This document shows positions 486 to 19,794 of a stretch of 19,901 nucleotides of DNA, piece by piece (position 1 is the first letter of the stretch; each line of letters opens with the position of its first letter). The position numbers and the translations under genes were made by a program. Source of the DNA: Candidatus Heimdallarchaeota archaeon (lineage in GTDB: Archaea; Asgardarchaeota; Heimdallarchaeia; JABLTI01); contig JAHLVW010000075.1 in the NCBI GenBank assembly GCA_019058275.1, positions 1 through 19,901 of the forward strand, given 5' to 3'. Under the pieces are notes generated by a model that saw nothing but the letters and a program-made list of their open reading frames with translations, had not been told where the DNA came from and did no database searches.

Positions 486-1316
486 ATGGTAGATACAGGC
501 TCATATACTCTCAAACCCTTTCCCAAGTTTCGAGAGATAGTAAAGGAATCAGTTGAAGCTGGCAAAAGGATGAATCATGTTATCGGAATGACTGAGTATG
601 ATGTAACAAAAGCTCGAGAGATTATTCGTAAGCATAAGGAAAAAACCAAGGAAACCCTATCCTTTACAGCGTTCATTATAAAATGCCTTAGTCAAGCAGT
701 AAATGAAAATAAACAGATTCATGCGCTAAGGAAGGGTAGACGAAAGGTTATCATTTTCGATGATGTCAATATTCGATTGAACATTGAAAGAGAATTAGAT
801 GGTGTAAAAACTGCTACAATACATGTAGTTCGAAAAGCTAATGAGAAAAGCTATCGAGAAATACATGATGAAATTCGCAGAGCACAAGGAGCAAAGGGTT
901 ATTCCACAATGGAAGTTTCTGCAAGACAACAAAGAAGATATCGGAACAGGCAGAAACGGTTAATTGCTATGCCAAAAATTGCAAGAAGAGTAGTTTGGTG
1001 GAGACTGAAACATGACCCATTCTTTATTCAGAAGAATATGGGAACTGTTGGAGTAACTACTCTAGGAACGATGTTCAGGGATAGAACAGGATATGCAATT
1101 ACTAGCAGTCCTCAGACATTAAGTGTAGCTTTAGGAGCCATTGTAGAAAAACCTGGAGTAGTTAATAAGAAAATCGAAATCCGGGAATACCTTTGCACAA
1201 CAGTGATGTTCAATCATGATGTTGTAGATGGTGCTCCAGCAGCAAGATTCATGACCAGATTTGGAGATTTAATAGGAGAAGGATTTGGTTTAACTAATCT
1301 TGATTCTAAAAAGTGA
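486..1316 (+). CDS. 2-oxoacid dehydrogenase E2-like acyltransferase (catalytic domain only, no lipoyl domain)
   Basis: C-terminal FNHDVVDGAPAARF corresponds to the DHRxxDG catalytic motif. Also LSFTAFIIKCLSQA and MGTVGVTTLG segments. The 276 aa leave no room for lipoyl or E3-binding domains. Confidence 0.85.
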   Translation: MVDTGSYTLKPFPKFREIVKESVEAGKRMNHVIGMTEYDVTKAREIIRKHKEKTKETLSFTAFIIKCLSQAVNENKQIHALRKGRRKVIIFDDVNIRLNIERELDGVKTATIHVVRKANEKSYREIHDEIRRAQGAKGYSTMEVSARQQRRYRNRQKRLIAMPKIARRVVWWRLKHDPFFIQKNMGTVGVTTLGTMFRDRTGYAITSSPQTLSVALGAIVEKPGVVNKKIEIREYLCTTVMFNHDVVDGAPAARFMTRFGDLIGEGFGLTNLDSKK

Positions 1317-3089: not shown

Positions 3090-4580
3090 ATGAGTGAAAA
3101 CGTTATTGAAGAACAGGAAAGAATTGATTATAGAAAACGAGTGTTGATTTGGTTTACCAAAAGAACAGCAATTCAAACAAAGAAAAAACATCAACCTATC
3201 TATCTTCAAAAAAAACTTGCTAGACAATCACTCATGGATCGTCAATTAAAAATACTCGAGGATAATGGATTCCTAGAGGTGGCATTTATCTCCAATGAGG
3301 TAGAGCTATTAGAATCACTTAAGGAAGAATTAAAAGCAAATCAATGGGAAAAGGAAGGTTTTACATTTGAGTTCACGAGTCAAAATGATCTTGCTAATTA
3401 CCTAAACGGTTCGGAAAAACAAAAAACCAATGAAATAATTCTAAATTTATCAGATGAATGGTTATTTGATGAGAGAATAATTAGAAATTTGTCTGAAAAA
3501 ATGCTCAAAGAAATGAAAAATGAAAACAATAAACAAGTAGAATTTATTTTTATTCAGGAAGATAGGAAGGAAATCCAAAGGGAAAAACAGCATGATTTAG
3601 TGTCTGAGGAATTTCTGCCATTAGTTGGAATTGTAACAGGAAGCCAAAATACCATTAGTAAGCAATTAATAAGAGAAGGAAATCAAGAAGAGGTAAATAA
3701 GCCACTTGAAAAGATAATTACTTTTGGTTTAAAGAAATCTCATAAAATAATAACAATGACAGAAATGCCAACATATATGACGTCAATGAGAAGGAAATTA
3801 CCAATCCAATATTACCTAGTAAGAGAGAGAAAGGATTTAGCAAAAGTAAAATGGGCTTTAACAAAACAAACACAGAAAGGAACATTAGACTTCATAGCTT
3901 GGTACTTTAACAGACCATTAGAAAATCTAGTAGTTTATGTAATAGCAAATTTACCAGTAACACCAAACCAAATAACCATATTAGTAAATATTATTGCATT
4001 CCTAGTTGCAGGATGCTTTATAACCTCTCCCTATTTGCTGGAGAATTATGAATTAACCTCGAGAGTTCTTCCTTGGATAGGGTTCATTGGATTAATAGTT
4101 GTTAACATCCTTGATGGAGTGGATGGAAAGCTAGCTCGAATAAGAGGACGCTTAACATTGCTAGGGTACATAGAGCACAGTTTCGATCAATTATATGAGC
4201 AAACTGTGTATTTTGCTGCATGTTGGTATTGTTTAACAATAACAAGTCAACCACTTATTCCATGGTTATTACTAATTGTGGCTTTTCTAATAATTGACAC
4301 ATTCAATAGGCATGTGTCAATGCAATACTATAACGTAATGAGGATCTCATTGGCAGACAGTGGTAAAATAGATAGAGCATTTCGAAGAATAGATGGAAGA
4401 AGAAATACCTACACAATCCACATACTGATTTTCTTTCTTCTACCTTGGAAACAATTTCTTGTAATATCAATGTTAACTCATGCGACTATTACAGGAATAG
4501 TATATGCAACCAGAGCAATACAACATCTAAGAAAAGCTGACAAAGGGATTTTTCCTGAAATGAAAAAACAGGAAATATGA
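3090..4580 (+). CDS. CDP-alcohol phosphotransferase family protein with a degenerate N-terminal NTP-transferase-like domain
   Basis: YFNRP...VTPNQIT and LDGVDGKLAR-x8-GYIEHSFD signature with several TM helices in the C-terminal half. The soluble N-terminal ~260 aa lack an intact GxGxR motif. Confidence 0.85.
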   Translation: MSENVIEEQERIDYRKRVLIWFTKRTAIQTKKKHQPIYLQKKLARQSLMDRQLKILEDNGFLEVAFISNEVELLESLKEELKANQWEKEGFTFEFTSQNDLANYLNGSEKQKTNEIILNLSDEWLFDERIIRNLSEKMLKEMKNENNKQVEFIFIQEDRKEIQREKQHDLVSEEFLPLVGIVTGSQNTISKQLIREGNQEEVNKPLEKIITFGLKKSHKIITMTEMPTYMTSMRRKLPIQYYLVRERKDLAKVKWALTKQTQKGTLDFIAWYFNRPLENLVVYVIANLPVTPNQITILVNIIAFLVAGCFITSPYLLENYELTSRVLPWIGFIGLIVVNILDGVDGKLARIRGRLTLLGYIEHSFDQLYEQTVYFAACWYCLTITSQPLIPWLLLIVAFLIIDTFNRHVSMQYYNVMRISLADSGKIDRAFRRIDGRRNTYTIHILIFFLLPWKQFLVISMLTHATITGIVYATRAIQHLRKADKGIFPEMKKQEI

Positions 4581-4635: not shown

Positions 4636-4860
4636 TCGGATGATGGTCTATCTTGGTTAACGCTCTCTAAAAGAGCTTGTGTTAACTTTTGATTCTCTGC
4701 GAGTCCGCCCAACTCCATTGCTGGAGGAACTTTCGTTTGATGGTTGACTGTGTGTCGCTAAAAAACTTCTCTCGAAACTCTTTCAGGAGTCGTTGCCTGA
4801 CCACAAGGCGTTTCTTTTGTGATACCGCTAGTAAAGCGAAGAATCTTTGCAGCAGAGTTG
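4636..4860 (-). ncRNA. Putative TnpB omegaRNA (scaffold overlapping tnpB 3' end, plus guide)
   Basis: Locally GC-richer segment with sense-strand hairpins TCAGG/CCTGA (4800-4783), CTCCA-GCAA-TGGAG (GNRA loop, 4726-4713) and GTTAAC..GCTCT/AGAGC-GTTAAC (4686-4656). This is the canonical location of TnpB omegaRNAs. Boundaries are approximate. Confidence 0.6.
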
Positions 4861-6214
4861 CTGCACTACTAGTATCTCTGTTTATTACTAACCCACAATC
4901 ACAACTAATAGTTCGTTCGGAGAGCAATTTGTTCTCCTTATTCATACAGTAGCTGCATCGTTTGGTTGTTCTTCGTTCACTGATCCTTATTACTTTCTTA
5001 CCTACTTTTTCTGCTTTGTAGGTTAAGAATCGAGCGAAGCGACCAATCGAACCACTGTTCTGCATACTTCTATGAAGACTTTTCTTGTTCTTCTTATCGT
5101 TCTTCTTGCTCTTACTCATTGCTTTAACATTCAAGTCACCAATGATTATAGTGTTTGCTTTGGTGTTCTCGACTATTTGTTTACTTATTTTGTGTTGGAA
5201 GTCTTTTCTTTGGTTTGCTTGTTTTGCAATCATTTTACTAAGTTTGTTATTATACCAGTGCCAGCGATTAGAATATTTTATGCAATGATCCCTTTTTTTT
5301 TGCACTTCCTCTATTTTTGGTTGCCAGTACTTGTCCACTCGCTTATTTTTGATGATTATTGTTTTTCCTTCGTGACTGTTCACAGCTGCAACCAAGTTGT
5401 TTATTCCCAGATCTATTGCCTGGTAAATATCATTGTTGTAGTACTCAGGGGTAGTTTGTTCGTATATGATCGATAGGAAGAATTCTTTGGTTTTATGTAC
5501 TTGGTAAATGGTTACTTGCTTCACTTTTTTGTTTGCGAAGGTGAATTTTCCTTGCATCTCGAAAGTGAGATTTACTTTTTTCGTTTCTTTTGTAGGATAA
5601 AAATGAGTAAAGGTTATCTTGTTTCCTTGAATTTTGAATCCGCTTTGATTATAGTGTATAGTGGTAAAGTATTTCTTCCCTTTGAATCCAGGTGGTCGTG
5701 CATCTTCATCTCCGTTATCTCTTAGAGTGTAAAACGAACGGTAATCCGCTTCTAATTGCTTTAGGGTGTCTTGCAGTGTTTTCGAGTAATTTTGTTGGTA
5801 TCGAGGATAGATTTCTTTTAGTTTTGGTAATTCTGCTGATTGCTTGTTATAGGTTGGTTTACTTTCTTTGTCTTGCTTCTTTTTTGGCAGGTGTTTATTT
5901 TTGTCCCACCATTCTTTTCTTTCTTTATTAGCGAAATAATGTATTAATCGACAGTTTTCTGCTAGTGCCCAGAGGATTTCTTTTTGTTCTATTGTTGGAT
6001 GGATTTTTACTTTAGCGGTTAATTGTAGTGGTTTCTTCTTTGTAGGTTTGGTTATTTGTTGTACTTGCTGTAGTGCTTTTTCTAATTCGTCCTTCGGAAG
6101 ATCAGCTATGAGTGTTTTGTAAGCTCTCTTTGTTAGTCTGTGATCTTTTGCGAACATTTTCTTCAATATTCTCTTTGTATGGTTAACTATATATTAAATT
6201 TATAAGGAGTTCAC
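4656..6214 (-). mobile_element. TnpB-only (IS1341-like, no tnpA) element; ends approximate
   Basis: tnpB with no Y1 or serine transposase in the window. A right-end-like hairpin ends at GTTAAC 4656. The left end is uncertain (GTGAAC motif at 6214-6209 on the minus strand). Confidence 0.5.
4682..6166 (-). CDS. tnpB: RNA-guided endonuclease TnpB (IS200/IS605/IS607 OrfB)
   Basis: N-terminal KVKIHPTIEQ...L, PPGFKG, RuvC-I AIDLGINNL, RuvC-II region IIIGDL, zinc finger CSYC...CDCG and RuvC-III NRD. Start is TTG 6166 or ATG 6157. Confidence 0.93.
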   Translation of the reverse strand: MKKMFAKDHRLTKRAYKTLIADLPKDELEKALQQVQQITKPTKKKPLQLTAKVKIHPTIEQKEILWALAENCRLIHYFANKERKEWWDKNKHLPKKKQDKESKPTYNKQSAELPKLKEIYPRYQQNYSKTLQDTLKQLEADYRSFYTLRDNGDEDARPPGFKGKKYFTTIHYNQSGFKIQGNKITFTHFYPTKETKKVNLTFEMQGKFTFANKKVKQVTIYQVHKTKEFFLSIIYEQTTPEYYNNDIYQAIDLGINNLVAAVNSHEGKTIIIKNKRVDKYWQPKIEEVQKKRDHCIKYSNRWHWYNNKLSKMIAKQANQRKDFQHKISKQIVENTKANTIIIGDLNVKAMSKSKKNDKKNKKSLHRSMQNSGSIGRFARFLTYKAEKVGKKVIRISERRTTKRCSYCMNKENKLLSERTISCDCGLVINRDTSSAATLLQRFFALLAVSQKKRLVVRQRLLKEFREKFFSDTQSTIKRKFLQQWSWADSQRIKS

Positions 6215-6319: not shown

Positions 6320-7948
6320 ATGATGATGTCTGACTTTCTCAATTGGCGAATGGATCCTTTTCTTCTCGATCCTGTGCCAACAGCGAAAAATGAATGGTTA
6401 ACAGCAAATAAGCTGATAGAACAGCAAAAGCAATCAAAGATATTTCTTAAATCAAATAACCTCAACCTTTATTCCATTATGGTTCGCAAACATGATTTTC
6501 TTGCAGGGGAAAGACTCCTTCAGCGGTTTCCTTATGTTTCTTTACCTTCTGAGCTAGCATTAAATGTTCGTAAACAGTCACTTAGCTTAGCTGAGAGGTG
6601 CCATCATTACTTTATAGAAACTGCCATTAATTATTCTATTAAGAAGTGGCAAGCAAAACTTATTGATTATCTAGAAAACCAGAAACGTTTACCTTTCCCT
6701 TTGTTCCGGATGAGTGATCATTGGCACGAGTTTCTTAAGCAAGAACGTGTGCAATTCCAATCATCGCGTGGTGAACACTTCCATCTACCAACTCTATTGA
6801 CAGGTGATCTAGCTTATTTTTTAGGGGTAGTCATTGGCGATGGGCACTTGAATTATCACAATATAGAATTAGTTGATTTTTCACAAGAACATATGCTCAT
6901 GCTTCAAGCACTAGCAAAAAGATTATTTGGTATTGAAGGAACGATTTCTGGAGAGAAAAAGATTTGGCTTCTGCATTTGAACAACAAATGGCTTGTGCGA
7001 CTGGTTAATTTCCTAACAAACCAACCAATAACAGGGAAGAAGTACCATACATTACGGGAACCACTCATTTTTGTTCTTACAGAGAACTTACGGTGGGAGT
7101 TCTGGAGTGGAGTATTAGATGCCGATGGCTGTTATAAATCGCAGATCGATCTTTGTTCTTCATCTAAACAATTTATAGAAGAATTTGGTGAAGTTCTTGA
7201 TTCTTACAATATCAAATATAAAATACGAGAAATTCGATCACAATCAAGTCTAGGGTTTTCATTGGGTGTTAAAGCTAAATATAAGAATAATCTTAGTCAC
7301 TACTTACATCCAAGACACCCAATTAAACAAAAAGACTTTTCACATTATTTACACCAGAAGAAAGCACCATTATCTAATATTCAACCATTTGAGCGCTTGT
7401 ATATCTACCAAATTAATCCACAGACACTTGTTAATATAAATGATACTACATTCTTTAATTTTGAACTTCTTCCTATGCTCAATGTCACAAATTGCTCAAA
7501 TTATTTACGAATAGTTCGTAACACAAACCATTGGACTCAACAAGATTTAGCAGATTATTTAGAAATACCAAAAGGACGATTAGCATCATATGAATATCGA
7601 TCAAACCTTCCAATTAATTCTCTTAGAAAACTTCTTCCACTACTTCCAGATTCCCCTCCTCACTTAATGTTTTTTCTTAAGCATTATAATCATCAATACT
7701 TTCGCTCTCGGAAAACGTTAGCTCGACTCGATTTAGAACCAGATTCTAGTTTGCTTTCTATCCTAAAATCATTAATAATTTGTCGAGATTACATCATAGT
7801 ACAATGTGAAGAAGAGGAAAAGAAAAGGATTTATACTGAGCTTAGAAATCGTTTTAAATTAGCAATTGTTAAAACAAATACTATTCAAAATTCAGTCTTG
7901 TATCAATATATTAACACTTTCTTTTTGTTGACTACGGAACAAAAGTGA
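6320..7948 (+). CDS. Free-standing LAGLIDADG endonuclease-like protein with XRE-type HTH domain(s)
   Basis: Two LAGLIDADG helices, LAYFLGVVIGDG and FWSGVLDADG, and an HTH YLRIVRNTNHWTQQDLADYLEIPKGRLASYE. No intein N-terminal Cys or C-terminal His-Asn motif is visible. Confidence 0.8.
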   Translation: MMMSDFLNWRMDPFLLDPVPTAKNEWLTANKLIEQQKQSKIFLKSNNLNLYSIMVRKHDFLAGERLLQRFPYVSLPSELALNVRKQSLSLAERCHHYFIETAINYSIKKWQAKLIDYLENQKRLPFPLFRMSDHWHEFLKQERVQFQSSRGEHFHLPTLLTGDLAYFLGVVIGDGHLNYHNIELVDFSQEHMLMLQALAKRLFGIEGTISGEKKIWLLHLNNKWLVRLVNFLTNQPITGKKYHTLREPLIFVLTENLRWEFWSGVLDADGCYKSQIDLCSSSKQFIEEFGEVLDSYNIKYKIREIRSQSSLGFSLGVKAKYKNNLSHYLHPRHPIKQKDFSHYLHQKKAPLSNIQPFERLYIYQINPQTLVNINDTTFFNFELLPMLNVTNCSNYLRIVRNTNHWTQQDLADYLEIPKGRLASYEYRSNLPINSLRKLLPLLPDSPPHLMFFLKHYNHQYFRSRKTLARLDLEPDSSLLSILKSLIICRDYIIVQCEEEEKKRIYTELRNRFKLAIVKTNTIQNSVLYQYINTFFLLTTEQK

Positions 7949-8602: not shown

Positions 8603-9079
8603 TTATCCACAATCACAGTCGCAACCACCAAGATCACAATCACCACAGTCACAGTCTCCGCAATCGCAATCTCCACAATCACAGCCGTTGCTACCACAAC
8701 CAGTTAAGTCGCAACCAGAAGTATCACATGTACTATAAGAACGTCGACGACGACCACTGCTATCATAGGAGCAGCAACAACAACAAGAACCAAAACAGAA
8801 CGATAATATTTCAAAAATGATGAAAAGTGGAAAAGTAAAACAATAGTACCATCTAAATTTTCGCATAGGTTCCCCTGGTTTAATCTGATAACTGCAATTA
8901 GCACATATTGTTGCGTTTACTGGATTTTGACGACTACAACTAGGACAGTAAATCACATTGGGTTTGGGGACAGCTTGTTGAGGAGGAGGTGTAGTAGCAG
9001 GAAGTTGTGAGCCACAATGTCTGCAATAAATATAATTAGAAGCATTCTCATTCCCACAATTTGGGCAAATTTTGCTCAT
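8603..9079 (-). CDS. Double zinc-ribbon membrane protein with Cys/Asp/Gly-rich C-terminal tail
   Basis: CPNC..CRHC and CPSC..CANC ribbons, a Pro/Gln linker, a hydrophobic helix WYYCFTFPLFIIFEILSFCFG, then CCCCC and (GDCDC)n. Confidence 0.8.
   Translation of the reverse strand: MSKICPNCGNENASNYIYCRHCGSQLPATTPPPQQAVPKPNVIYCPSCSRQNPVNATICANCSYQIKPGEPMRKFRWYYCFTFPLFIIFEILSFCFGSCCCCCSYDSSGRRRRSYSTCDTSGCDLTGCGSNGCDCGDCDCGDCDCGDCDLGGCDCDCG
8606..8686 (-). repeat. Coding tandem repeat (15-nt unit, CDCGD) in the Cys-rich tail
   Basis: Protein reads GCDCGDCDCGDCDCGDCDLGGCDCDCG; synonymous codons differ between units. Confidence 0.7.
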
Positions 9080-9183
9080 AGCTAAAGCTCACATACCAAC
9101 CCAAATATTATATTTAAAAGATTTAATCTTCTTTTAGCTTTTGGTTAGTAGATAATGAAATTAGGCTATAGATTTACAGTCAC

Positions 9184-10074
9184 TTAAACTTTCATTTTTA
9201 AAAGCCATTTTTTATTGTATTCACCTATATACATGAAGCCAATAGCCTTCTCTCCAACATGGGTGCCAACAAGTGAACCAGCTTCTTGAACGATAATCCT
9301 TTTGTTCTGTGTGTTATGAGTTTCCATAAGTTCTAGAAGTTCCTGAGCAGTTCCTGGATTTCTCACGTGCCAAATAAAAATAATGTCAGTAATTGCTTTT
9401 TCAAGAATAATGGGAGCAATAAATTTAAGTCGTTTTACAACTTCTTTTCTTCCTATAAGAGTACCACCTGAAACAATAGAGCCATCATTGAAATAAACAA
9501 CAGGTTTTATTCTAAGTGAGGAAACTAAGAATTTTTTTGCCCAACCAACCCTTCCACTACGATATACAGCATCAACACTATTTAAAACAACTACCAAACG
9601 TGCTTGAGGAATTAGCTCATCTAAACGCTTAAGAATTTCTTCTTTTGTTGCTCCATTCTTAGCCATTTTAGCTGCTTCGATAACAAGTACCCCCAAAGTT
9701 GAAGTAGCTACTCTTGAATCAACAATTGTAATGTCATCTCCTTTAAATGTACTACTAATTCTTAATGCATTTTGATACAATCCTGAGAAATTTTTTGACA
9801 AAACAATACATATAACTGTATCTGATTCAGCAAGAGCTTTTTGAAAGGTTTTTACAAAATCAATATTTGGAGGAATAGCAGAAGTAGGAGGTTCTACTGA
9901 AGTTTGAAGTTTAACATAAAATTCTTCTTTGGTAATTGTTCCCCAATCACCATAGGTTTTATAGACTTCTTCACCAAAAATCACTTGAAAGGGAATTACA
10001 TGAATACTATATTCTTCAATCAACTTTTTAGGGATATCACAACTACCATCTGTTACAATTGCTATTTTTTTCAT
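9184..10074 (-). CDS. degV: DegV/FakB family fatty-acid-binding protein (intact)
   Basis: IVTDGSCDIP, PTSAIP, LSKNFSG, VDSR, SGRV, IKPV and VGTHVG motifs; SD AAGGAGGA at 10089-10082. Confidence 0.92.
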   Translation of the reverse strand: MKKIAIVTDGSCDIPKKLIEEYSIHVIPFQVIFGEEVYKTYGDWGTITKEEFYVKLQTSVEPPTSAIPPNIDFVKTFQKALAESDTVICIVLSKNFSGLYQNALRISSTFKGDDITIVDSRVATSTLGVLVIEAAKMAKNGATKEEILKRLDELIPQARLVVVLNSVDAVYRSGRVGWAKKFLVSSLRIKPVVYFNDGSIVSGGTLIGRKEVVKRLKFIAPIILEKAITDIIFIWHVRNPGTAQELLELMETHNTQNKRIIVQEAGSLVGTHVGEKAIGFMYIGEYNKKWLLKMKV

Positions 10075-10128
10075 CAGGATTTCCTCCTTGAAGAAATAAT
10101 CAGTAAAATCTTGCTTTTATTGGGATTA

Positions 10129-10401
10129 TTATGCTTTTTGCGTCTGTTTACAAAATAAATAACAGTCACTCTCTCTTACTAAATCATTTAAAATTACAAT
10201 AAATACAAAAGCATCTTTTGGAGAATTAGCTAACCTTTTGAGAAATTCTTCTCGAGGGATAGTTGTTTCATCATTATTACAAACTTGATAAATATCGTCA
10301 ACAAAAATTACACGATATGGAACTATAGAAATATCATATTTCTCAATTAAGTTCTTAGGAAGATCATTAATTCCATCTGTAACAATTGTTACTTTTTTCA
10401 T
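10129..10401 (-). pseudogene. degV: Truncated DegV paralog (N-terminal ~65 aa only)
   Basis: MKKVTIVTDG..DLP..LIEKYDISIVPYRVIF aligns with the other two DegVs up to LANSPKDAF (~10207), then becomes unrelated and stops. GAGGTG SD precedes ATG 10401. Confidence 0.75.
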
Positions 10402-10583
10402 TGAACACACCTCAATCAGTAAAACTATGGAACAACAAAGGAATATTCTTCAAATCATATTTGTTTTAATTTATTTAAAATTGCTCTGATTTTACAGTCA
10501 TAAGAAATTAAAGCTAACAAAATACTTTAGTGATGAAAAATCATGGTATAATAACAATAATTATTTCCATCTATGTGATAGCT

Positions 10584-11291
10584 ATGACAGCAATAAAAAT
10601 AATGATAGTTAGTTTAACGTGTATTGGATCATATCTTTTAGGATCAATACCTTTCTCTGTTTGGGGAGGACAACTAATAAAAGGAACAGACCTTCGGACG
10701 CAACATACCCATAACCCCGGAGGATTCAACGCCATAAGGACTTTTGGACCAGGAATTGGATTAATAATAATGTTCCTTGATTTACTTAAAGGAGTGCTAA
10801 CAATAGCTCTTATAGATCATATATACTCGATACCATATTTTGTGACAGAAGATGCTTCAAATAACTATTACACCATAATGTGCATTCTAGGACCAGCTTT
10901 GTGTGTAATGGGGCACAACTATTCCATTTGGTTAAAATTCAGAGGAGGACAAGGATTAGGAGTTTTAATGGGTGTTTTAATGTACTTTAATCCATTAGTC
11001 TTAATGTTTTATCTCTTAGCATTTATGGTGTTTGTAGGGATTTTCAAAGCAATACCTCGAGTTGCAGGATTTGTTATAGTACTCCTATGCGTACCTGTTG
11101 CGCTCTTTATGCCAATCGGACCACCATGGAGTAACATACTGGTAAATTTGGTCGTTGGAGCAAATGGTTTAGTGCACTTAACAGCAGGATTAATCATCAC
11201 AGGAATGAATTTAGCATTACTAATAAAATTAGTAGGAAATCTATTTACAGGTTCATCAATAGGAAAAAGAAAAATAATAGAAACTAGTTGA
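10584..11291 (+). CDS. plsY: PlsY-family glycerol-3-phosphate acyltransferase, divergent
   Basis: SYLLGSIPF, DLR....NPGGFNAIR, DLLKG and GHNYSIWLKFRGGQG motifs with multiple TM helices. ATG 10584 (after GTGAT) is preferred over the tracked 10530 start. Confidence 0.85.
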   Translation: MTAIKIMIVSLTCIGSYLLGSIPFSVWGGQLIKGTDLRTQHTHNPGGFNAIRTFGPGIGLIIMFLDLLKGVLTIALIDHIYSIPYFVTEDASNNYYTIMCILGPALCVMGHNYSIWLKFRGGQGLGVLMGVLMYFNPLVLMFYLLAFMVFVGIFKAIPRVAGFVIVLLCVPVALFMPIGPPWSNILVNLVVGANGLVHLTAGLIITGMNLALLIKLVGNLFTGSSIGKRKIIETS

Positions 11292-11332
11292 AATAATGAC
11301 TAGTTTCTCATTTTTTTAGTAATCATTGTTGG

Positions 11333-12565
11333 TTATTTTTTACGCTTCTTTTTAGTAGTTTTCTTTCCTTTATTCCTAGTTGCTAAAAGAACGACTACTG
11401 TTAGGAGATATAATGCACCCATACCAACAATTATCCATAGTCCCCATTGAGCAAGGAAAGGAATTTCTCCTATACCTCCATTTCCATTTGGCAGTGTAGA
11501 TGCAATTGTTATATTAAGATCTAAACAATAGAGAGTATTTTCTGGATGACCAACTGGCACTATTATCTCATATTCACTATCACTGTCAAGATTAACAACA
11601 TTGGGTTTTCCATAGATATCACCGTCGAACGTGTAATTCCATAAGTGATTACCTTGATAGTCTACACAATAGAGGTGGTTATCATTAGCACCTACAAGAA
11701 TCTCCTTGTAGTTATCACCATCTAAGTCAACTGTGGTAGACTTGCCAATACTATCACCAAAGTAAGTACTCCAGAGTAAACCTCCTGTACCATTAAAACA
11801 AAAGAGAAAACCATTGTGAGATGAGACAACTATCTCGAGATTAGAATCAGAGTCTAAATCAGAAATAATAGGATCTCTTAATGAACCTCCAGGAAAGAAT
11901 AACCATTCTCGTATCCCAGGATCTCTATAGGCAGATAACATTCCACCGTTAGAAGGAACTACTACTTCTACAGTATTATCATTATCAATATCAGCAGCAA
12001 CAGCATTAGTGCTAATACCAGCACCGATAGGATAACTCCAATCAAAAGAACCAGTATTGTCTAAACAGTAGAAATACTCGTCAGCTGAACCAAAAAGAAT
12101 CTCTTCAACACCATCATCAGTAATATCAACTGCTAGAGGAGTAGGATACACACTGCCACCAGTAGAGTAATTCCATTCTTTAGTTCCAGTGTCTGAAATA
12201 CAATAAACGTTATTGTCTAAACAACCAAACAAAACTTCCAAAGTACCATCATCATCAAGGTCAGATGCAGAGGGACTGCTTGTGATAGCTGTACCAGTAT
12301 CATAATTCCAAAGATGGTTACCGTCATAAGAAATACAATAAGCATTATGATCTAAAGAAGTAAAAACGACTTCTTGGAAGCCATCATCATCAAGATCAGA
12401 GACTTGTGGATTACAATAAATCCCTGCTCCAACAGCATAACTCCATTTTTCTGTGATAGCCATTTCTGCGCTAACTGTGGGCAGAGGATTGAAATTGACT
12501 AGTACCAGAACGTTAGCAAACAAAAAGAGGATAATAAGATTAGTAGTGTAAAATTTTTTTCTCAT
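11333..12565 (-). CDS. Membrane-anchored FG-GAP/VCBS/PQQ-like beta-propeller surface protein
   Basis: Signal peptide, seven ~45-aa repeats (W.Y...P...DLDxDGxxE....D...YC....G), a C-terminal TM helix and a Lys-rich tail. Confidence 0.85.
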   Translation of the reverse strand: MRKKFYTTNLIILFLFANVLVLVNFNPLPTVSAEMAITEKWSYAVGAGIYCNPQVSDLDDDGFQEVVFTSLDHNAYCISYDGNHLWNYDTGTAITSSPSASDLDDDGTLEVLFGCLDNNVYCISDTGTKEWNYSTGGSVYPTPLAVDITDDGVEEILFGSADEYFYCLDNTGSFDWSYPIGAGISTNAVAADIDNDNTVEVVVPSNGGMLSAYRDPGIREWLFFPGGSLRDPIISDLDSDSNLEIVVSSHNGFLFCFNGTGGLLWSTYFGDSIGKSTTVDLDGDNYKEILVGANDNHLYCVDYQGNHLWNYTFDGDIYGKPNVVNLDSDSEYEIIVPVGHPENTLYCLDLNITIASTLPNGNGGIGEIPFLAQWGLWIIVGMGALYLLTVVVLLATRNKGKKTTKKKRKK

Positions 12566-13441: not shown

Positions 13442-14503
13442 CTATGAAGATTCAGATTCTTGATAGATTAATTCAGTAGTGTCGTCATGAGAATTTAGAA
13501 TAATAACTTTTTCCACTTTACCATCACTCGAAAGTATGAACCTTACAGCTTTTAGATACTCACCTTCAAATTCTGTTTCATTGTAAGGAGTAAAGGGTTC
13601 TTCGTAATCGCCAATTTTAGCAAATAGCTGATCCTCTTTGAAAATGATTTCAACCACAGATTTATCCTTTGTATAGGTACCTACTAGCTTAGATAGATCT
13701 TCGGATTTAACTTTAGCTTGAGGGTTCTTGAAAAATTCAGTTACTTTCTTCTCTTTAGGATACTTGCCTACAGGATGAACAAGAACGACGAACTCATCTT
13801 TAGTATCAAGCTCAAGTAGCTTGTCGACTTTATTCTGTTCGTAATAACCAATAGCACAAGTTCCTAGTTTTATTGCTTCGCAAGCCATGTAGAGACTTTG
13901 ACAAAGCAATCCGAGATCAATAGCAATGAATTTGTGAGCAAGTACGGTATAACGCCACTCAGTTCTATAAGGAACAGCAGTCCAATAAAAAATAACAGGT
14001 GCTTTTCCAACAAATTTCTGATTATAGGATAACTCACCAATAGTTTTCTCTACATCTTTTATTTCTTTGATGAAGAGTAACTTATGACTGAAAGAGATGT
14101 AGCGATATAAACCCGGATCAAGACCTTTAACTCGGTTAATCACAAGATACGTTTCAAAAGGACTTTTAGCACCAGAAGAAGGAACAGTTCTTCTAACACC
14201 AAGACCAGATTTTAATTCCTTTTTCAAGCCTTGTGTGCACCAAAGCAAGAAGGAAAGTTCTTCAAGAGTAAGGAGGTCATCGGTGTATTTTCTTCTACTT
14301 TTCCGGTTATTAACAATATTCAATAAAGGAGTTTTCCCTATCTTGAAATCCTCAGGAGAGACTAAATCAATGAGAATAGCATCTTTGGGATAAGGTCTTT
14401 CAAAAGGTGGAGGAGGAATCTTCTTTTGTTCATCAGATTCTGGAACTTCTTTCTCATAATCTTCGTTATCGAAGAATTGCAAAAATTTTCTATTTTCTTT
14501 CAT
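13442..14503 (-). CDS. SagB/ThcOx-family FMN nitroreductase-like dehydrogenase with extra C-terminal domain
   Basis: RKSRRKY, LSFLLW..QG, RTVPSSGA, GLDPGLYRY, RTEWRY, DLG..CQSLY and LGTCAIG motifs; ~100-aa C-terminal extension starting LSKLVGTY. Confidence 0.88.
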   Translation of the reverse strand: MKENRKFLQFFDNEDYEKEVPESDEQKKIPPPPFERPYPKDAILIDLVSPEDFKIGKTPLLNIVNNRKSRRKYTDDLLTLEELSFLLWCTQGLKKELKSGLGVRRTVPSSGAKSPFETYLVINRVKGLDPGLYRYISFSHKLLFIKEIKDVEKTIGELSYNQKFVGKAPVIFYWTAVPYRTEWRYTVLAHKFIAIDLGLLCQSLYMACEAIKLGTCAIGYYEQNKVDKLLELDTKDEFVVLVHPVGKYPKEKKVTEFFKNPQAKVKSEDLSKLVGTYTKDKSVVEIIFKEDQLFAKIGDYEEPFTPYNETEFEGEYLKAVRFILSSDGKVEKVIILNSHDDTTELIYQESESS

Positions 14504-14625
14504 AATAGCTTAACAACAAACAATCACTATTAATTTTCTTAGAAATCTAGAAGATAAGAGGTAAAAAAGAAGGAAATAAATATTCTGTTGATAAAAATAT
14601 AACTAGCAAAAAGGCTAATTTATTG

Positions 14626-15363
14626 TCAGTATTTTGATGGATTATTGTATTCTATAGTTTCAATGGGAAATTTCGCATAACTAAAATCACCTGATTTAAG
14701 GTTCCACTCCACTTCCATATAGAAAGGTATCTTCATACCATTAATTTCTCTATAATCTTTATAGTAGCCTGTCCAATCTTCTAAAGTATCATCTTTGTAT
14801 CTTCTTGCCTTGAAATGAGTAATTTGTCCCAATTCATTGAAGTAGTAAGTTCCACTAATTGTTTGATTATAATCTGTGAAAATAATCTTAGCTGAATTTT
14901 CATCTATAGGTTCCCATCTTAGTTTATCTGAAGGTAATAGTGCTGTTGGAAAGATTGGTGTTTCAGCTAACCAACGTAGTAGTTCACCTTGATCAATTTC
15001 CTTGCCTTTAGCATCAACGACCTTAAACAATGATAGTAATTTAATCACAAGATTTCCTTTACCTTTAATGTACATATCTTTCGCTGAAATAAAAGGAACT
15101 TTTGCATGCCAGTAAAAACCAGGTTGTTCAGTGGTAAAATACTCTTTTCCTTTGATAGGCATCCATTTTTCAGTTGGTCTAAATTGACCTCTGTGTTTTA
15201 ATCTAATATAACTAATGTATGACTGGTTCTCTTGCAGTGTGTAACTGAAATATCTCTTCACAGGATTGGGTAGATCCTTAATCTGCTCAGAAGAGTAGGT
15301 CTTATCCGAGATATTTTTTGATGCTGAAAATAAGTCTTTAATCTGTTTTTTTGGTTTTGCCAT
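14626..15363 (-). CDS. Conserved hypothetical protein, DUF6544-like
   Basis: LPNPVKRYF, H.GQFR, GELLRWLAE..FPTALLPS, WEPID and F.A.RY patterns. The family assignment is from memory and not verified by search. Confidence 0.7.
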   Translation of the reverse strand: MAKPKKQIKDLFSASKNISDKTYSSEQIKDLPNPVKRYFSYTLQENQSYISYIRLKHRGQFRPTEKWMPIKGKEYFTTEQPGFYWHAKVPFISAKDMYIKGKGNLVIKLLSLFKVVDAKGKEIDQGELLRWLAETPIFPTALLPSDKLRWEPIDENSAKIIFTDYNQTISGTYYFNELGQITHFKARRYKDDTLEDWTGYYKDYREINGMKIPFYMEVEWNLKSGDFSYAKFPIETIEYNNPSKY

Positions 15364-15555
15364 AATTGTATCAAGAAATTATAAGGTTCAAATCATCAAT
15401 AAAATCATTGCTATGTATTTCATTATTAATTGTAATAAAAATTCTAATCCTTTTCTTATTTCTAAAAATAGACCTTTTCAAAAATGTCGCAAATAGATGT
15501 TAATAAAGGATATGTGTTCAATGAAGTTACGTTGAAAAAAGTATACGTATGAATA

Positions 15556-17829
15556 CTATATTGTTTCAAACGCATTCCTTAATCTTTCAGCGATATTTCG
15601 TTTTAATATTAAAGTAGTAGTTACTAAAACTGTAAGCAGAGATGCTCCTAGCACTATAAATGATCTTGAAAGCATAGTGTCTGGAACTGGAATAGTATTT
15701 AGGGGAGAAATTAAATTCCTGAAAGTGAATGCAAACAAGTCAGAAAGTTGAATGGCTATAGGTATACTAAGAGAAATACCAAGCGATGAAAATAAAAGAA
15801 TTTTCAGAAATTCATTCAAAAGAATAGTCCAATTAGAGAATCCTAATGTTTTCAAAATTACGAACTCCCATTCTCGTTCCATTGTTGATAGTAAAACAAT
15901 AATTCCTACAAGCATTATAGTTAATATTATTGTCAAGAAATCCATGGGATAAGTCATTGCAGTATATTCAGTCATTAGTTGTAGCCAACCTTCACGATAA
16001 TCATTTTTTAAGACCCAAGACTTGACAAATGGCATGTTTTTGAGGGACTCTTCTATTTGTAGGATTTGATCAGTATCTACTTTCAAGTATAGACCTGTGA
16101 AGTTTACAAGATTAGTAAGAATATACCCTTCAGAGGAACTAAATTCATGTAAGATAGCTGAGATGTTGATTTCCCTTCTCCCAGAAGGAGTTGCTAGTGA
16201 AACAGTGTCATTGATAGAAAGACCTAAGCGATAGACAACATCACCTGAAAGAATCACATTATCAGTTATAACAGCTCCTTCGGTAGATGAAAATTTACGC
16301 ATTGTTGTGTTTTCTATTAGTTGATTTAACTGTATAACTATGCTCTTGTTTTCATAGCTAATCTCAGCACCACTTCCTAAGTATGGTTCAGCACTAAGAA
16401 TATGAGGAGTTCCTGTAAAAACAGGAATAATAGAATTATTCTGTAGAGTATTAAAACTAACTTTAATATCCCACATTTCATACTCATCGAATCGCTGGTT
16501 TATTCCTTCATTAAAAGTGTTCATAGATAATGCAAAAGACATTCCAAGAGATAACAGCATAGCAATAGCAATAACTGTGCTGATACTTCTAGCTTTATGA
16601 CCAAAAATATCCCTAAGAAAAAGCTTTCTGGTAACTGAAATAGAGGATTTGTTTAATATCCGAGCACTTTTTTTAGAGGTAATATAAGATTTCATTGCAA
16701 TAACTGGTGTTAATGAGGATGCATGAAAGGCAGGGAAAAAAGCTCCAATAATTGTGAAAACCACTGCGAAAATAACTCCATAACCAAAATAGGCAAAATG
16801 TAGGTTATAGGTTATGAATTGGCTTGGAATACCAAGGATATTATTACCCCAGTAGTTCATAATAAGTGAGAGAAATCCATAAGCTAGTGGAATTGACAAA
16901 AGAATGCCAATAGAAGAAGCAATACTAGCGAAGAGGAGATAATAGAAGAAAATAGATCGTTTTGTGAAACCCATTGCTCTAAGGATACCAATTTCTTGGC
17001 GCTTCTTTTCAACTAGTCTTGCTAAAACTACAAAGATGATAAAGGCAGAGATAGCAAGAAGGATAATAGTAAAAATATTAGCTAAGGAACTAACTGCTTT
17101 CAAGTCTTCTCTAAAAGCAAGATAAATGAAGGATTGATTGACTTGCTTAACTACAGCGCTTATTCCTTGAGCAGTGAAAAATGATTCGAGATCAGAAACA
17201 ACAGCACTAATTTTACTCATGTCTGATACTTTGCAGTAGAAGGTATTTACAAAAGGAATAATGGTTTCTTCGCAAACAAAAAAAATCCCAAAATCTAATT
17301 CAACTGATCCTTCAGGAGAAATTAAGTAAATATATTCTGGGGAAAAACAAATACCACTTACATTAAAAGTGGTAGCATTACCAAAAATGTAAAGAGCAAG
17401 CTCTTGACCGATTTCTATGTTATGCTGGCTAGCATAATGATGCTCAACAACAATAGCATTAGTTGCATTAAGATCATCTCCTGAAAGAATTTCATAGTTA
17501 TTAACTCGAACACCAATAGGAACACTAGTAACTACCCCTCTAATTCTTGTTGCATTATCATAGGAATAACATTCAGTCATAAAACCTGCAGAAACCTCGG
17601 AAATGCCTGGGAAAAGCTCAAGATCAGATGAATAATCAATAGTTGGCATTGTTGAGATAATAATATCTGCTGAGTTAAGATCATCATTAGCAGATTCAAG
17701 GACCGTTAAACCGGAATCATAAACACTCCGGAAAGAAGAATAAAATGCTGTACTGAGAGCAATAAGAATGACAATGGCAATTACCCAACCAAGATGAGAC
17801 TTTAGATCACGGAGTAATCGCTTAATCAA
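15556..17829 (-). CDS. ABC transporter permease, FtsX/MacB-like (duplicated)
   Basis: Two repeats of TM, extracytoplasmic domain and 3 TM, with RQEIGILRAMGF and REWEFVILKTLGF motifs. Overlaps the ATPase stop by 4 nt. Confidence 0.9.
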   Translation of the reverse strand: MIKRLLRDLKSHLGWVIAIVILIALSTAFYSSFRSVYDSGLTVLESANDDLNSADIIISTMPTIDYSSDLELFPGISEVSAGFMTECYSYDNATRIRGVVTSVPIGVRVNNYEILSGDDLNATNAIVVEHHYASQHNIEIGQELALYIFGNATTFNVSGICFSPEYIYLISPEGSVELDFGIFFVCEETIIPFVNTFYCKVSDMSKISAVVSDLESFFTAQGISAVVKQVNQSFIYLAFREDLKAVSSLANIFTIILLAISAFIIFVVLARLVEKKRQEIGILRAMGFTKRSIFFYYLLFASIASSIGILLSIPLAYGFLSLIMNYWGNNILGIPSQFITYNLHFAYFGYGVIFAVVFTIIGAFFPAFHASSLTPVIAMKSYITSKKSARILNKSSISVTRKLFLRDIFGHKARSISTVIAIAMLLSLGMSFALSMNTFNEGINQRFDEYEMWDIKVSFNTLQNNSIIPVFTGTPHILSAEPYLGSGAEISYENKSIVIQLNQLIENTTMRKFSSTEGAVITDNVILSGDVVYRLGLSINDTVSLATPSGRREINISAILHEFSSSEGYILTNLVNFTGLYLKVDTDQILQIEESLKNMPFVKSWVLKNDYREGWLQLMTEYTAMTYPMDFLTIILTIMLVGIIVLLSTMEREWEFVILKTLGFSNWTILLNEFLKILLFSSLGISLSIPIAIQLSDLFAFTFRNLISPLNTIPVPDTMLSRSFIVLGASLLTVLVTTTLILKRNIAERLRNAFETI

Positions 17830-18536
17830 CCAATCTCCCCCGCAAGAGATGATTCAGTTGTGTTTTTAGTGTCGTCAATAATTTCACCATCTCTCAAAGT
17901 AATAACTCGTTCAGCCATCTTCATAAATGTTAAATCATGAGTAACAAAGATAGTTGTCATATCAAGTTTTTTCGCAGCACTATATAAAACAGAAATGACT
18001 TTTTCACCACTTTTTGTATCGAGGTTACCAGTTGGTTCATCGGCTAATAAAATAGAAGGATTTTTAGCTAAAGCGCGAGCAATCGCTACTCGTTGCTGTT
18101 CGCCACCAGATAATTCAGAAGGAAAACGATTCTTTAATTCTACAAGAGAGACTAAATCAAGGAAACGAGCAGCTTCCTCTCGAGCAGTTTCACCAGTTAT
18201 TTTACGAAATTTTAAAGAAAGTTCAACATTTTCAGAAGCAGTGAGAGTGGAAATAAGATTGAAGAATTGGAAGACAAAACCCACATTATATCTTCGAAAC
18301 ATGGTGAGTGATCTGTCATTGAAAGCAGAAAGATCCTTTCCACCAACTATAACTTTCCCTTTTGTTGGAACATCTATCCCACCAATAAGATTTAATAAAG
18401 TACTCTTACCACAACCAGAAGGACCAACAACAACAACAAACTCACCTTTAGCAATTACAAGATTAAGGTCTTTTAATCCGTAAACTTCTTCCTCACCAGA
18501 TTTGTATATTTTAGTTAATCCTCTTAGATCAATCAT
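17826..18536 (-). CDS. ABC transporter ATP-binding protein, LolD/MacB-like
   Basis: Walker A GPSGCGKST, GFVFQFFNL, LSGGEQQRVAIARAL, ADEPTGNLD and VTHD. ATG 18536 is preferred over TTG 18545. Confidence 0.95.
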   Translation of the reverse strand: MIDLRGLTKIYKSGEEEVYGLKDLNLVIAKGEFVVVVGPSGCGKSTLLNLIGGIDVPTKGKVIVGGKDLSAFNDRSLTMFRRYNVGFVFQFFNLISTLTASENVELSLKFRKITGETAREEAARFLDLVSLVELKNRFPSELSGGEQQRVAIARALAKNPSILLADEPTGNLDTKSGEKVISVLYSAAKKLDMTTIFVTHDLTFMKMAERVITLRDGEIIDDTKNTTESSLAGEIG

Positions 18537-18906
18537 AAATATCAATTTCTTAGTTTTTAAGCCTTAAAATATAATATTCGAAGTTTAATAAATATAGTTT
18601 GGAATTGAAGAAAGAAGGTTATACAACAAAGTACAGAGCAGTTCAACAATTCTTACTCTTTCGCAAGGTATTGAGCAATGACAGCAAAAAATATGATTCA
18701 CAAAGTGATAATAAAAGCAATACGAAATAATTGATTATTAAATTTCGCTGCTCTTTTTTATGAAAAAATAGTGAGATTAAGATTTAAAGGAGAGATATTT
18801 AAAATTTATTTATCGGGATAAGATTTATTGGTTAATGTGTGTACTAAAACCAAGTGTTGCAAAGCAACAAAATTACTAGCTATGGAAACTATATGGTGTA
18901 AATTCT

Positions 18907-19794
18907 ATGTCTAAAGTAACTATCGTTACAGATGGTCTTTCCGAGTTGACTAAGGACCAAGTTGAAGAATATAATGTGGTGACTATCCCTTACAGGATTA
19001 TTTTTGGAGATGAAGTATATTATATCAAGAATAATACTGAAGGGGAATTAACAACACAGGAATTCTGTGAAAAATTAAAAACAGTAAATAAAGAAACTTT
19101 TCCAAGAACGTCTGTTCCATCACCGGGTGATTTAGTAAAAGCGTATGATGAAGCGTTTAAGAAATTAGATAGTGTGATTGCCTTCACTATCACCTCCGGC
19201 ATGTCTGGGACATATCAAGCAGCGAAGGGAGTAGTAGCTAATGGCTACCAAGATAAAGATATCACAGTCTTTGATTCCTTACATACCATGACTGGAATTG
19301 GGAGTCAAGCAATTGAAGCAGCTAAAATGGCTTACAAAGGGGAAAGTAAAGAACAAATCCTCAAAAGGCTTGAAGCAATCAGACCAAAAACAAGATACAT
19401 ACTCGCAATGAGAGATTTGGATTTCCTGGAAAAGCAAGGGCGACTTGGACCAATTGAAAAAATCTGAGATAAAAATCCAGAGGTCATTCCAGTGATTCAT
19501 GAAGTAGATGGTATCTTGCAACCACTATCAATGTTCAACAATGAACAAAACCTCATTGATAGAATGAGTGCTTTTGCGAAGAAGATATGTGAAGTAACTG
19601 AAACAGATGATATCTTTCTAAGTCATATAAATAACCAGAAAGCAGGCGATGTCATATACAAAGTATTAATGGAAAATAAAAAAGAGAGCACAGAAATACA
19701 CTATCATGAAGCATGTCCAATTCTAGGAGCTTATTCTGGACCTGATAGTATTTCTCTTAGTTATGTTGGAGGTTTTGAAAAAGATTGGTTATGA
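18907..19794 (+). pseudogene. degV: Full-length DegV/FakB paralog interrupted by one in-frame TGA (19465-19467)
   Basis: ORFs 18907..19467 and 19492..19794 share a frame. Read through, they give a 295-codon DegV (VTDG, PRTSVP, SGMSGTY, DS, QGRL, IPVI, ILGAYSGP) colinear with 9184..10074. Confidence 0.8.

Follow-up and report, generated by a model that had tools for sequence, protein, structure and literature searches.

A 19,901-nucleotide stretch of DNA from a Candidatus Heimdallarchaeota archaeon, referred to here as the window and comprising the whole of contig C70 (GenBank JAHLVW010000075.1), encodes a PlsY-like membrane protein beside genes of the DegV family. From its sequence, this protein appears to have kept the acyl-phosphate site of bacterial PlsY and lost the glycerol-3-phosphate (G3P) site; it belongs to a distinct, archaea-only class that includes most PlsY-family genes of Heimdallarchaeia and probably serves another acceptor. 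Elsewhere in the same metagenome-assembled genome (MAG; 4.12 Mb in 118 contigs, 92.8% complete, 6.8% contamination), contig C69 carries a conserved fakA-degV-plsY operon whose products would supply the acyl-phosphate. The central features of the window are as follows.

9184-10074, minus strand: intact DegV, 296 aa (Pfam DegV, 235 bits, profile positions 1-278 of 280).
10129-10410, minus strand: DegV N-terminal stub, a 93-aa open reading frame (ORF) (Pfam DegV, 29.8 bits, profile positions 1-54 only).
10411-10583, no strand: AT-rich intergenic region separating the degV stub from the PlsY-like gene (from the sequence).
10584-11291, plus strand: PlsY-like membrane protein, 235 aa (PF02660, 108 bits, profile positions 2-142 of 164; the mechanical ORF runs from GTG 10530).
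10220-11324, no strand: strain-variable cassette of degV 5' stub, intergenic region, and PlsY-like gene (from sediment-run contigs).

The likely start of the PlsY-like protein is ATG 10584, which matches its homologues. Against TIGR00023, the NCBI equivalog model for PlsY, the protein scores 85 bits and does not reach the cut-off of 137.2. We scored the G3P pocket as S35, R45, K104, and N180 (the phosphate clamp) together with S142 and H177, following the roles assigned in PMC5700162, and the acyl-phosphate site as H92, the G102-G103-x-G105 loop, N37, and T41. Compared with the PlsY of Aquifex aeolicus (aaPlsY; 5XJ5), the window protein keeps N37, N42, R45, H92, and the GGxG loop. Relative to aaPlsY and bacterial PlsYs it carries the replacements S35T, T41F, and K104Q (GG-Q-G for GG-K-G), and in that alignment S142, H177, and N180 have no counterpart. 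In aaPlsY, S35T alone retains 17% of activity, and changes at H177 and N180, as well as T41A and K104A, are severe (PMC5700162). Because most G3P-binding residues are gone and the equivalog cut-off is missed, acyl transfer to G3P by the window copy is unlikely; the initial annotation of this stretch had assumed that its PlsY passes acyl-phosphate to G3P, and for this copy that assumption found no support.

The same pattern runs through the clade, in which H92, the GGxG loop, N37, and N42 are invariant, position 41 is Phe or Met, and the clade-specific residues K155 and R159 are invariant or nearly so. The subfamily comprises 39 clusters at 41 to 58% identity (mean, ∼50%), all Asgard where named, with 22 invariant columns and the signature [HN][TV]xNPGG[FM]N, GGQG, and PPW; such invariance across 39 diverged clusters argues for selection. 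An AlphaFold (AF2) model of the window protein (pLDDT 86.7) has the PF02660 domain and the seven-transmembrane (7-TM) PlsY fold, and the only significant match to it in a Foldseek search was PlsY (5XJ5-8; probability 1.0, TM 0.60 to 0.76). From the clade to any bacterial protein the score drops from 164 to 74 bits, and when the window protein alone was searched against genome contigs, only distant bacterial PlsY was found. In a tree of 107 sequences, every copy of this and related genomes that lacks most of the phosphate clamp (clamp-less) fell on one archaea-only side (SH-aLRT 85); clade A, which contains the window protein, had a support of 100, and the canonical, fakA-linked copies fell among bacterial PlsY.

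The C69 operon has the order fakA-like, degV, plsY and is flanked by genes for RPA and a folliculin-like protein. Its FakA-like protein (C69:78075-79016, 313 aa), the sole copy in the genome, matches Dak2 at 145 bits and FakA-like_M at 77 bits; it covers positions 1-299 of the 530-position TIGR03599 model, that is, the N and L domains without the C domain. Its DGDTGxNM, CTE, and HxH catalytic motifs align with those of Streptococcus suis FakA (7W7H). In Staphylococcus aureus, FakA needs no more than its N and L domains to act as a kinase, and its C domain serves to bind FakB (PMC9136124). The PlsY of the operon scores 160 bits, and 155.7 against TIGR00023, which is above the cut-off; no other copy in the genome has all three motifs in canonical form. 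All 6 of the complete related loci keep the operon intact, and other Heimdall families have it too; the C69 degV (79138-79980) has an in-frame TAA in the present assembly and is intact in six relatives. Of the genomes sampled, 20 of 28 Heimdallarchaeia gave a match to the FakA_M domain, versus 0 of 123 other Asgard genomes. Heimdallarchaeia would thus possess an acyl-phosphate source, a FakA-like kinase of predicted activity in a conserved operon. The initial annotation, which had no fakA in the window, proposed a search of the genome for one; the gene on C69 answers that search.

Both gene families are expanded in the source's own family, f1, represented by 12 genomes (G000-G011); the other Heimdall families (f2, f3, and f4 among them) are represented by 29 (G012-G040). 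The source genome has 13 PlsY-family matches (∼11 genes) and 24 DegV matches (∼19 genes). PlsY-family genes number 4 to 13 per genome in f1 and 0 to 3 in the other families; DegV genes number 4 to 19 in f1, 8 to 12 in f2, and 0 to 2 in f3 and f4. A DegV lies within 1 kb of 5 of 12 PlsY-family loci, whereas 5,000 random placements gave a mean of 0.23 and none attained 5; genome-wide, the adjacency far exceeds chance. In 3 species-representative genomes and on 8 metagenome contigs, a clade-A gene is followed 30 to 50 bp downstream by a convergent DegV, and many more pairs of DegV and PlsY-family genes are visible in congeners. The degV-plsY linkage noticed at the outset therefore recurs as adjacency, in the genome and in relatives, but none of the relatives examined showed the window's exact divergent layout. 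Single in-frame stops were noted in several copies (C34:5608-6180, C52:56289-57853, C11:34924-35600, C80:37021-37869, and the C69 operon degV); they could reflect birth-and-death turnover or assembly errors.

A profile search of the source genome for PlsX (PF02504) gave no match. PlsC-type proteins (PF01553) were found in none of 12 f1 and none of 10 f2 genomes and in all 14 f3 and all 3 f4 genomes, a distribution complementary to that of the PlsY-like and DegV expansions, which occur in f1 and f2. Glycerol-1-phosphate dehydrogenase (G1PDH) turned up in 0 of 12 f1 genomes and in 29 of 29 genomes of the other families. GpsA was found in none of the 41 Heimdall genomes, and a search for CdsA returned nothing but a cross-hit on CarS. 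There was no PcrB/TIGR01768 match for GGGPS in f1, nor in closed f2 genomes that have G1PDH, and tblastn with GGGPS-like proteins of relatives found nothing; since the closed f2 genomes with G1PDH give none either, we judge the GGGPS models too insensitive here and do not claim absence. Routes to G3P are encoded in the genome by a GlpA/GlpD-type G3P dehydrogenase, two GDPD proteins, and a GlpK-like kinase. Among the enzymes other than FakA that the initial annotation listed for a search (PlsX, PlsC, GpsA/GlpK, and G1PDH), the GlpK-like kinase was thus the one found, the others being undetected in the genomes just given for each.

The genome also encodes a possible supply of fatty acids. At C22:42255-53000 (L299:4256-15001) lies a 3,581-aa single-chain megasynthase with the domain order ER-KS-AT-ACP-KR-DH-PPT and an NMO-type ER domain, flanked by genes for an acetyl-CoA carboxylase (ACC) carboxyltransferase and a biotin carboxylase. 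KS-domain ORFs of similar size are present in f1 (12/12), f2 (5/5), and f4 (3/3) genomes and absent from the f3 genomes (0/7). It had been proposed from the window alone that an archaeal host takes up fatty acids into ester or chimeric lipids; the archaeal host and the acyl-phosphate source agree with this proposal, but uptake is not required where ACC and a type-I-fatty-acid-synthase-like megasynthase are encoded.

The host is an archaeon, as the initial annotation had thought probable, and belongs to the Heimdallarchaeia (Asgard). Contig C115 carries an archaeal small-subunit (SSU) rRNA (1326 bits, full length) together with a PlsY paralogue, and the FakA-like, PlsY-like, and DegV proteins have their nearest kin in MAGs labelled Heimdallarchaeota, Asgard, or Promethearchaeati, of a class that includes Ca. 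Heimdallarchaeum aukensis. A bacterial contig strayed into the bin could be suspected from the estimated contamination of 6.8% and from DegV and PlsY being families typical of bacteria. The composition of C70 nevertheless fits the genome (GC, 33.5%; tetranucleotide correlation, 0.986 against a genome median of 0.995), the window PlsY-like clade is found in archaeal MAGs only, and the subfamily of the intact DegV (DegV1) is Asgard-labelled save for three odd labels. Neither protein exceeds 40% identity to bacterial proteins, and paralogues occur on at least 10 contigs, the rRNA contig included, and in all 11 family relatives. We regard contamination as having next to no likelihood.

The remaining features of the window are listed below; Pfam searches confirmed all of the genes that had been named from the sequence, namely, the degV, the degV fragment, the plsY-family gene, the third degV, the E2-type acyltransferase, and the CDP-alcohol transferase.

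486-1316, plus strand: stand-alone E2/CAT-fold acyltransferase, 276 aa (PF00198, 2-oxoacid_dh, 78.5 bits).
3090-4580, plus strand: protein with a CDP-alcohol phosphatidyltransferase domain, 496 aa (PF01066, weak, 28.8 bits, residues 291-452).
4682-6166, minus strand: TnpB/IS605 OrfB-type gene (OrfB_IS605 and Cas12f-like TNB domain).
6320-7948, plus strand: LAGLIDADG and HTH protein, 542 aa.
18907-19794, plus strand: third DegV, "Tyr-type" (Pfam matches to both halves; in-frame TGA at 19465-19467; 193 bits with 1 TGA).

The intact DegV scores 245 bits against TIGR00762 (cut-off, 99.7) and 143 bits against the FakB1 equivalog, which is under the cut-off of 350; it can be aligned end to end with the DegV/FakB structures 3FYS, 7W7H_E, and 6NM1. 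It is of the "His-type," with PTS, FSG, SGR, and THVG motifs, and keeps the Thr/Ser/Arg/His carboxylate-binding network, so we predict a fatty-acid-binding protein of the DegV/FakB type. Its subfamily has ∼78 clusters, the named ones mostly labelled Heimdall-, Thor-, or Asgard, with three Zixibacteria or Bathyarchaeia labels, and bacterial DegVs are merely 27 to 34% identical to it. In locus L220, the DegV that lies upstream of the PlsY-like gene shares 69% identity with it; none of the other His-type members of the genome (C36, C61, and C98) adjoins a PlsY gene. In the third DegV and the C8-type copies, the carboxylate-binding His is replaced by Tyr (HxGP motif). The stub is DegV-like over residues 6-63 only, and its closest kin are the C8/C98 Tyr-type DegV subgroup, the partners of clade-A PlsY-like genes; the stub is probably what truncation has left of this PlsY-like gene's original partner. 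Identity between the third DegV and the C8 DegVs paired with PlsY-like genes is 46 to 47%, and the third gene is probably a pseudogene. Selenocysteine at its TGA was considered and rejected, the TGA being aligned to Leu, not Cys.

Comparison with DNA contigs from sediment runs (X1, X3, and X5) showed that part of this arrangement varies among strains. A contig of run X5 keeps 9000-10219 (23 mismatches in 1220) and 11325-11394 (7 in 70), with 4125 other letters replacing 10220-11324. In run X3, one contig follows 9000-10219 and then diverges, and a second record of lower likeness reaches 11325-11394; a loose end at 10219 is present in the source-like run X1 too. The break at 10219 coincides exactly with the end of DegV homology in the stub. 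Contigs of other runs diverge at this position; together, the stub and the PlsY-like gene are therefore a cassette that varies among strains, and its partner degV was probably truncated by rearrangement. The window had at first been read as a degV, a degV fragment, and plsY sharing a divergent promoter; the stub, which separates the intact degV from the PlsY-like gene, is indeed a divergent partner, the intact degV is not, and the promoter itself is presumed to lie in 10411-10583.

When synteny over the whole window was compared with congeneric contigs (G001, G004, G008, and G009) and with L104/L105, the PlsY-like gene alone matched, at 45 to 58% identity. Locus L220 holds orthologues of DegV1 (69%), the PlsY-like protein (57%), a Tyr-type DegV, and the E2-like protein (67%) inside 4.6 kb, so that parts scattered over the window appear there as one compact module. 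The TnpB and LAGLIDADG genes separate the E2-like gene from the DegV/PlsY-like genes. Such mobile elements may explain the scatter relative to the compact L220 module. We conclude that the window holds a peripheral, rearranged, and partly decayed copy of a Heimdallarchaeial DegV and PlsY-like cassette.

The E2-like protein has the catalytic HxxxDG motif, as NHDVVDG, and a 67% identical orthologue directly adjoins DegV/PlsY-like/DegV genes in L219 and L220. Its family is widespread, with 2792 relatives in many archaea and some bacteria, and its own-genome paralogues are unlinked. We rejected it as a dedicated module member on these grounds and because L219 and L220, seemingly the same organism, amount to one independent relative; membership is a possible lead only. 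An identical protein (P0236) is recorded on a 2.26-Mb contig, which points to a more contiguous public assembly of the same or a near-identical organism. In the 496-aa protein the CDP-alcohol transferase domain is confined to the C-terminal third, and the N-terminal 270 residues have no domain assigned to them. Weak NCBIfam matches, the archaetidylinositol-phosphate synthase model included, all lie under the cut-offs, and there is a faint full-length likeness (38 bits) to the Thermococcales bifunctional myo-inositol-1-phosphate cytidylyltransferase/CDP-inositol transferase model; the protein is possibly a head-group enzyme. A nitroreductase and a large FtsX-type permease occur near PlsY-like genes both in the window (13442-18545, with an ABC ATPase) and in L017 (C54; 6262-9762), and on C8 (L015 2178-5773) two ABC exporter half-transporters precede DegV/PlsY-like pairs. 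These exporters and permeases may link the cassettes to the transport of lipids or fatty acids.

The pathway that we narrowly favour would start with DegV proteins binding free fatty acid, either made by the cell's own ACC and megasynthase or scavenged. The single short FakA would phosphorylate the DegV-bound acid, yielding acyl-phosphate, with which the lone canonical PlsY of the C69 operon would acylate glycerol phosphate to give lysophosphatidic acid (LPA). The clamp-less paralogues, the window's among them, seem to retain the "phosphate hole" for acyl-phosphate and have a rebuilt acceptor pocket, and so would pass the acyl group on to something other than G3P; they might, for example, carry out PlsC-type steps, the enzymes for which were not found in f1. 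Every one of these biochemical steps is predicted from sequence, the acceptor above all.

Several points weigh against this pathway. The anti-correlation with PlsC amounts to about two independent lineages only; the split in the tree is moderately supported, for a short protein; and K155 and R159 could rebuild a phosphate site, so that the acceptor may be phosphorylated, glycerol phosphate included. Family f1 keeps CarS, so that archaeal-type lipids are probably still made, and the only lipid analysis of a cultured Asgard archaeon, a Lokiarchaeon, is reported to have given archaeal lipids alone (as cited in PMC13400652). The window copy itself lies in a variable cassette with a truncated partner degV, the third degV and the C69 operon degV contain stops, and this copy could be on its way out. 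We are doubtful that the whole chain holds, from self-made fatty acids through a short FakA and ∼19 DegVs to a canonical PlsY, a new class of non-G3P acyltransferases, and fatty-acyl ester or mixed lipids, in a family without detected G1PDH or PlsC.

The residues K155 and R159 also bear on the likeliest alternative, that the window protein continues to acylate glycerol phosphate (G3P or G1P) as one isozyme among many, its pocket rebuilt. The PlsY fold is intact and the acyl-phosphate site apparently so, R45 is kept in the window copy, the two clade-specific residues could stand in for K104, and G3P sources are encoded; bacterial PlsY, moreover, accepts both G3P and G1P (PMC13400652). Such an isozyme would have to function with S35T, T41F, and K104Q combined and motif 3 lost, although single changes of this kind are severe in aaPlsY, and with a score under the equivalog cut-off; the same genomes keep a canonical PlsY alongside, and no G1PDH was found in f1. 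We consider this alternative unlikely. The DegV and PlsY-like proteins might instead handle fatty acids for ends other than membrane synthesis, in catabolic scavenging, detoxification, acylation of storage lipids or glycolipids, or modification of a non-lipid target. Sediment metagenomes are the source of the relatives, and lipids are substrates in such settings; Gerdarchaeota have been proposed as lipid degraders (bioRxiv 10.1101/858530); PlsY-like genes (window, C54, and C8) repeatedly have ABC exporters or FtsX-type permeases and nitroreductases as neighbours, and variation of the cassette between strains is typical of accessory functions. This explanation overlaps the favoured pathway, which likewise posits a non-G3P acceptor, but no PlsX or known route from acyl-phosphate to beta-oxidation was found, and the canonical operon points to LPA synthesis; we hold it to be quite improbable.

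It could also be that the window genes are relics of a birth-and-death family, or that the PlsY-like protein is no longer catalytic. Decay is suggested by the degV stub, by the TGA that interrupts the third degV, by stops in the C34, C52, and C69 copies, and by the TnpB and LAGLIDADG genes on the contig, and the segment is dispensable in sibling strains. Yet the PlsY-like ORF and DegV1 are intact, DegV1 retains all of its ligand-binding residues, the PlsY-like fold is confidently predicted, and 22 columns are invariant over the 39 diverged clade members. We think loss of function very improbable.

The origin of the bacterial-type fatty-acyl G3P lipids of eukaryotes, given an archaeal host lineage, is a question of long standing. 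Asgard PlsY/PlsC homologues, with PlsY known from Loki-, Thor-, and Heimdallarchaeota, have already been published (Coleman 2019, PMC6431249; Manoharan 2019, PMC6737245), and Villanueva 2017 is cited on Asgard PlsY/PlsC in Coleman 2019. The two 2019 papers remarked on the lack of PlsX in Asgard archaea and doubted a role in lipid synthesis, and PMC6431249 discounted Asgard PlsY for want of a known acyl-phosphate source. The FakA-DegV-PlsY operon would provide Heimdallarchaeia with that source; most of their PlsY-family genes form a class of their own, and the expansion coincides with missing G1PDH (f1) and missing PlsC-type enzymes (f1 and f2). If the whole chain outlined above held, this would be a natural archaeal lineage near the eukaryotic stem that is part-way over the lipid divide, in which the PlsY-like family could enable fatty-acyl lipids in a close archaeal relative of eukaryotes. 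The window contributes one more family member and evidence of cassette turnover among strains. In the literature searched, there was no paper that links DegV or FakA to Asgard archaea, nor any on the split between canonical and clamp-less copies or on the copy-number expansion; coupled FakA/FakB-PlsY assays exist (PMC13400652). Gerdarchaeota, which are related to Heimdallarchaeota, have no G1PDH and have a GlpA-type G3P dehydrogenase (bioRxiv 10.1101/858530). The gene pattern of f1 matches theirs in both respects.

Set beside bacterial PlsY, as represented by the A. aeolicus structures 5XJ5 to 5XJ8, the window protein has the same fold, H92, N37, N42, the D-x-x-KG motif, and the GGxG loop. It differs in that the G3P clamp and the 2-OH ligands are replaced, as is T41 (by Phe), and its clade has new conserved K/R and PPW motifs and an extra C-terminal segment, is confined to archaea, and has members that are often paired with a DegV of their own. 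The FakA/FakB-PlsY system of Firmicutes (S. aureus, S. suis, and Bacillus subtilis; 7W7H, 7RM7, 6NM1, and 3FYS) resembles the Heimdall genes in the FakB ligand residues of the DegVs, in the N- and L-domain catalytic motifs of FakA, and in the operon linkage to PlsY. Unlike the Firmicute FakA of ∼550 aa, the Heimdall protein, at 313 aa, has no FakB-binding C domain, and unlike the Firmicute system, the Heimdall genes include ∼19 DegV paralogues per genome, some with His replaced by Tyr, and no PlsX was found; the host, moreover, is archaeal. Fusions of FakA (N and L domains) with DegV were also seen at L047, L048, L054, L059, L065, L072, and L093 (Maridesulfovibrio). Closest in layout are those bacterial fusions that are followed by plsY (L083, L092, and L100; Spirochaetota and an uncultured bacterium), which have the same parts in the same order and likewise no C domain; in these bacteria kinase and carrier form one polypeptide of 600 to 650 aa, whereas in Heimdallarchaeia they are encoded by separate genes.

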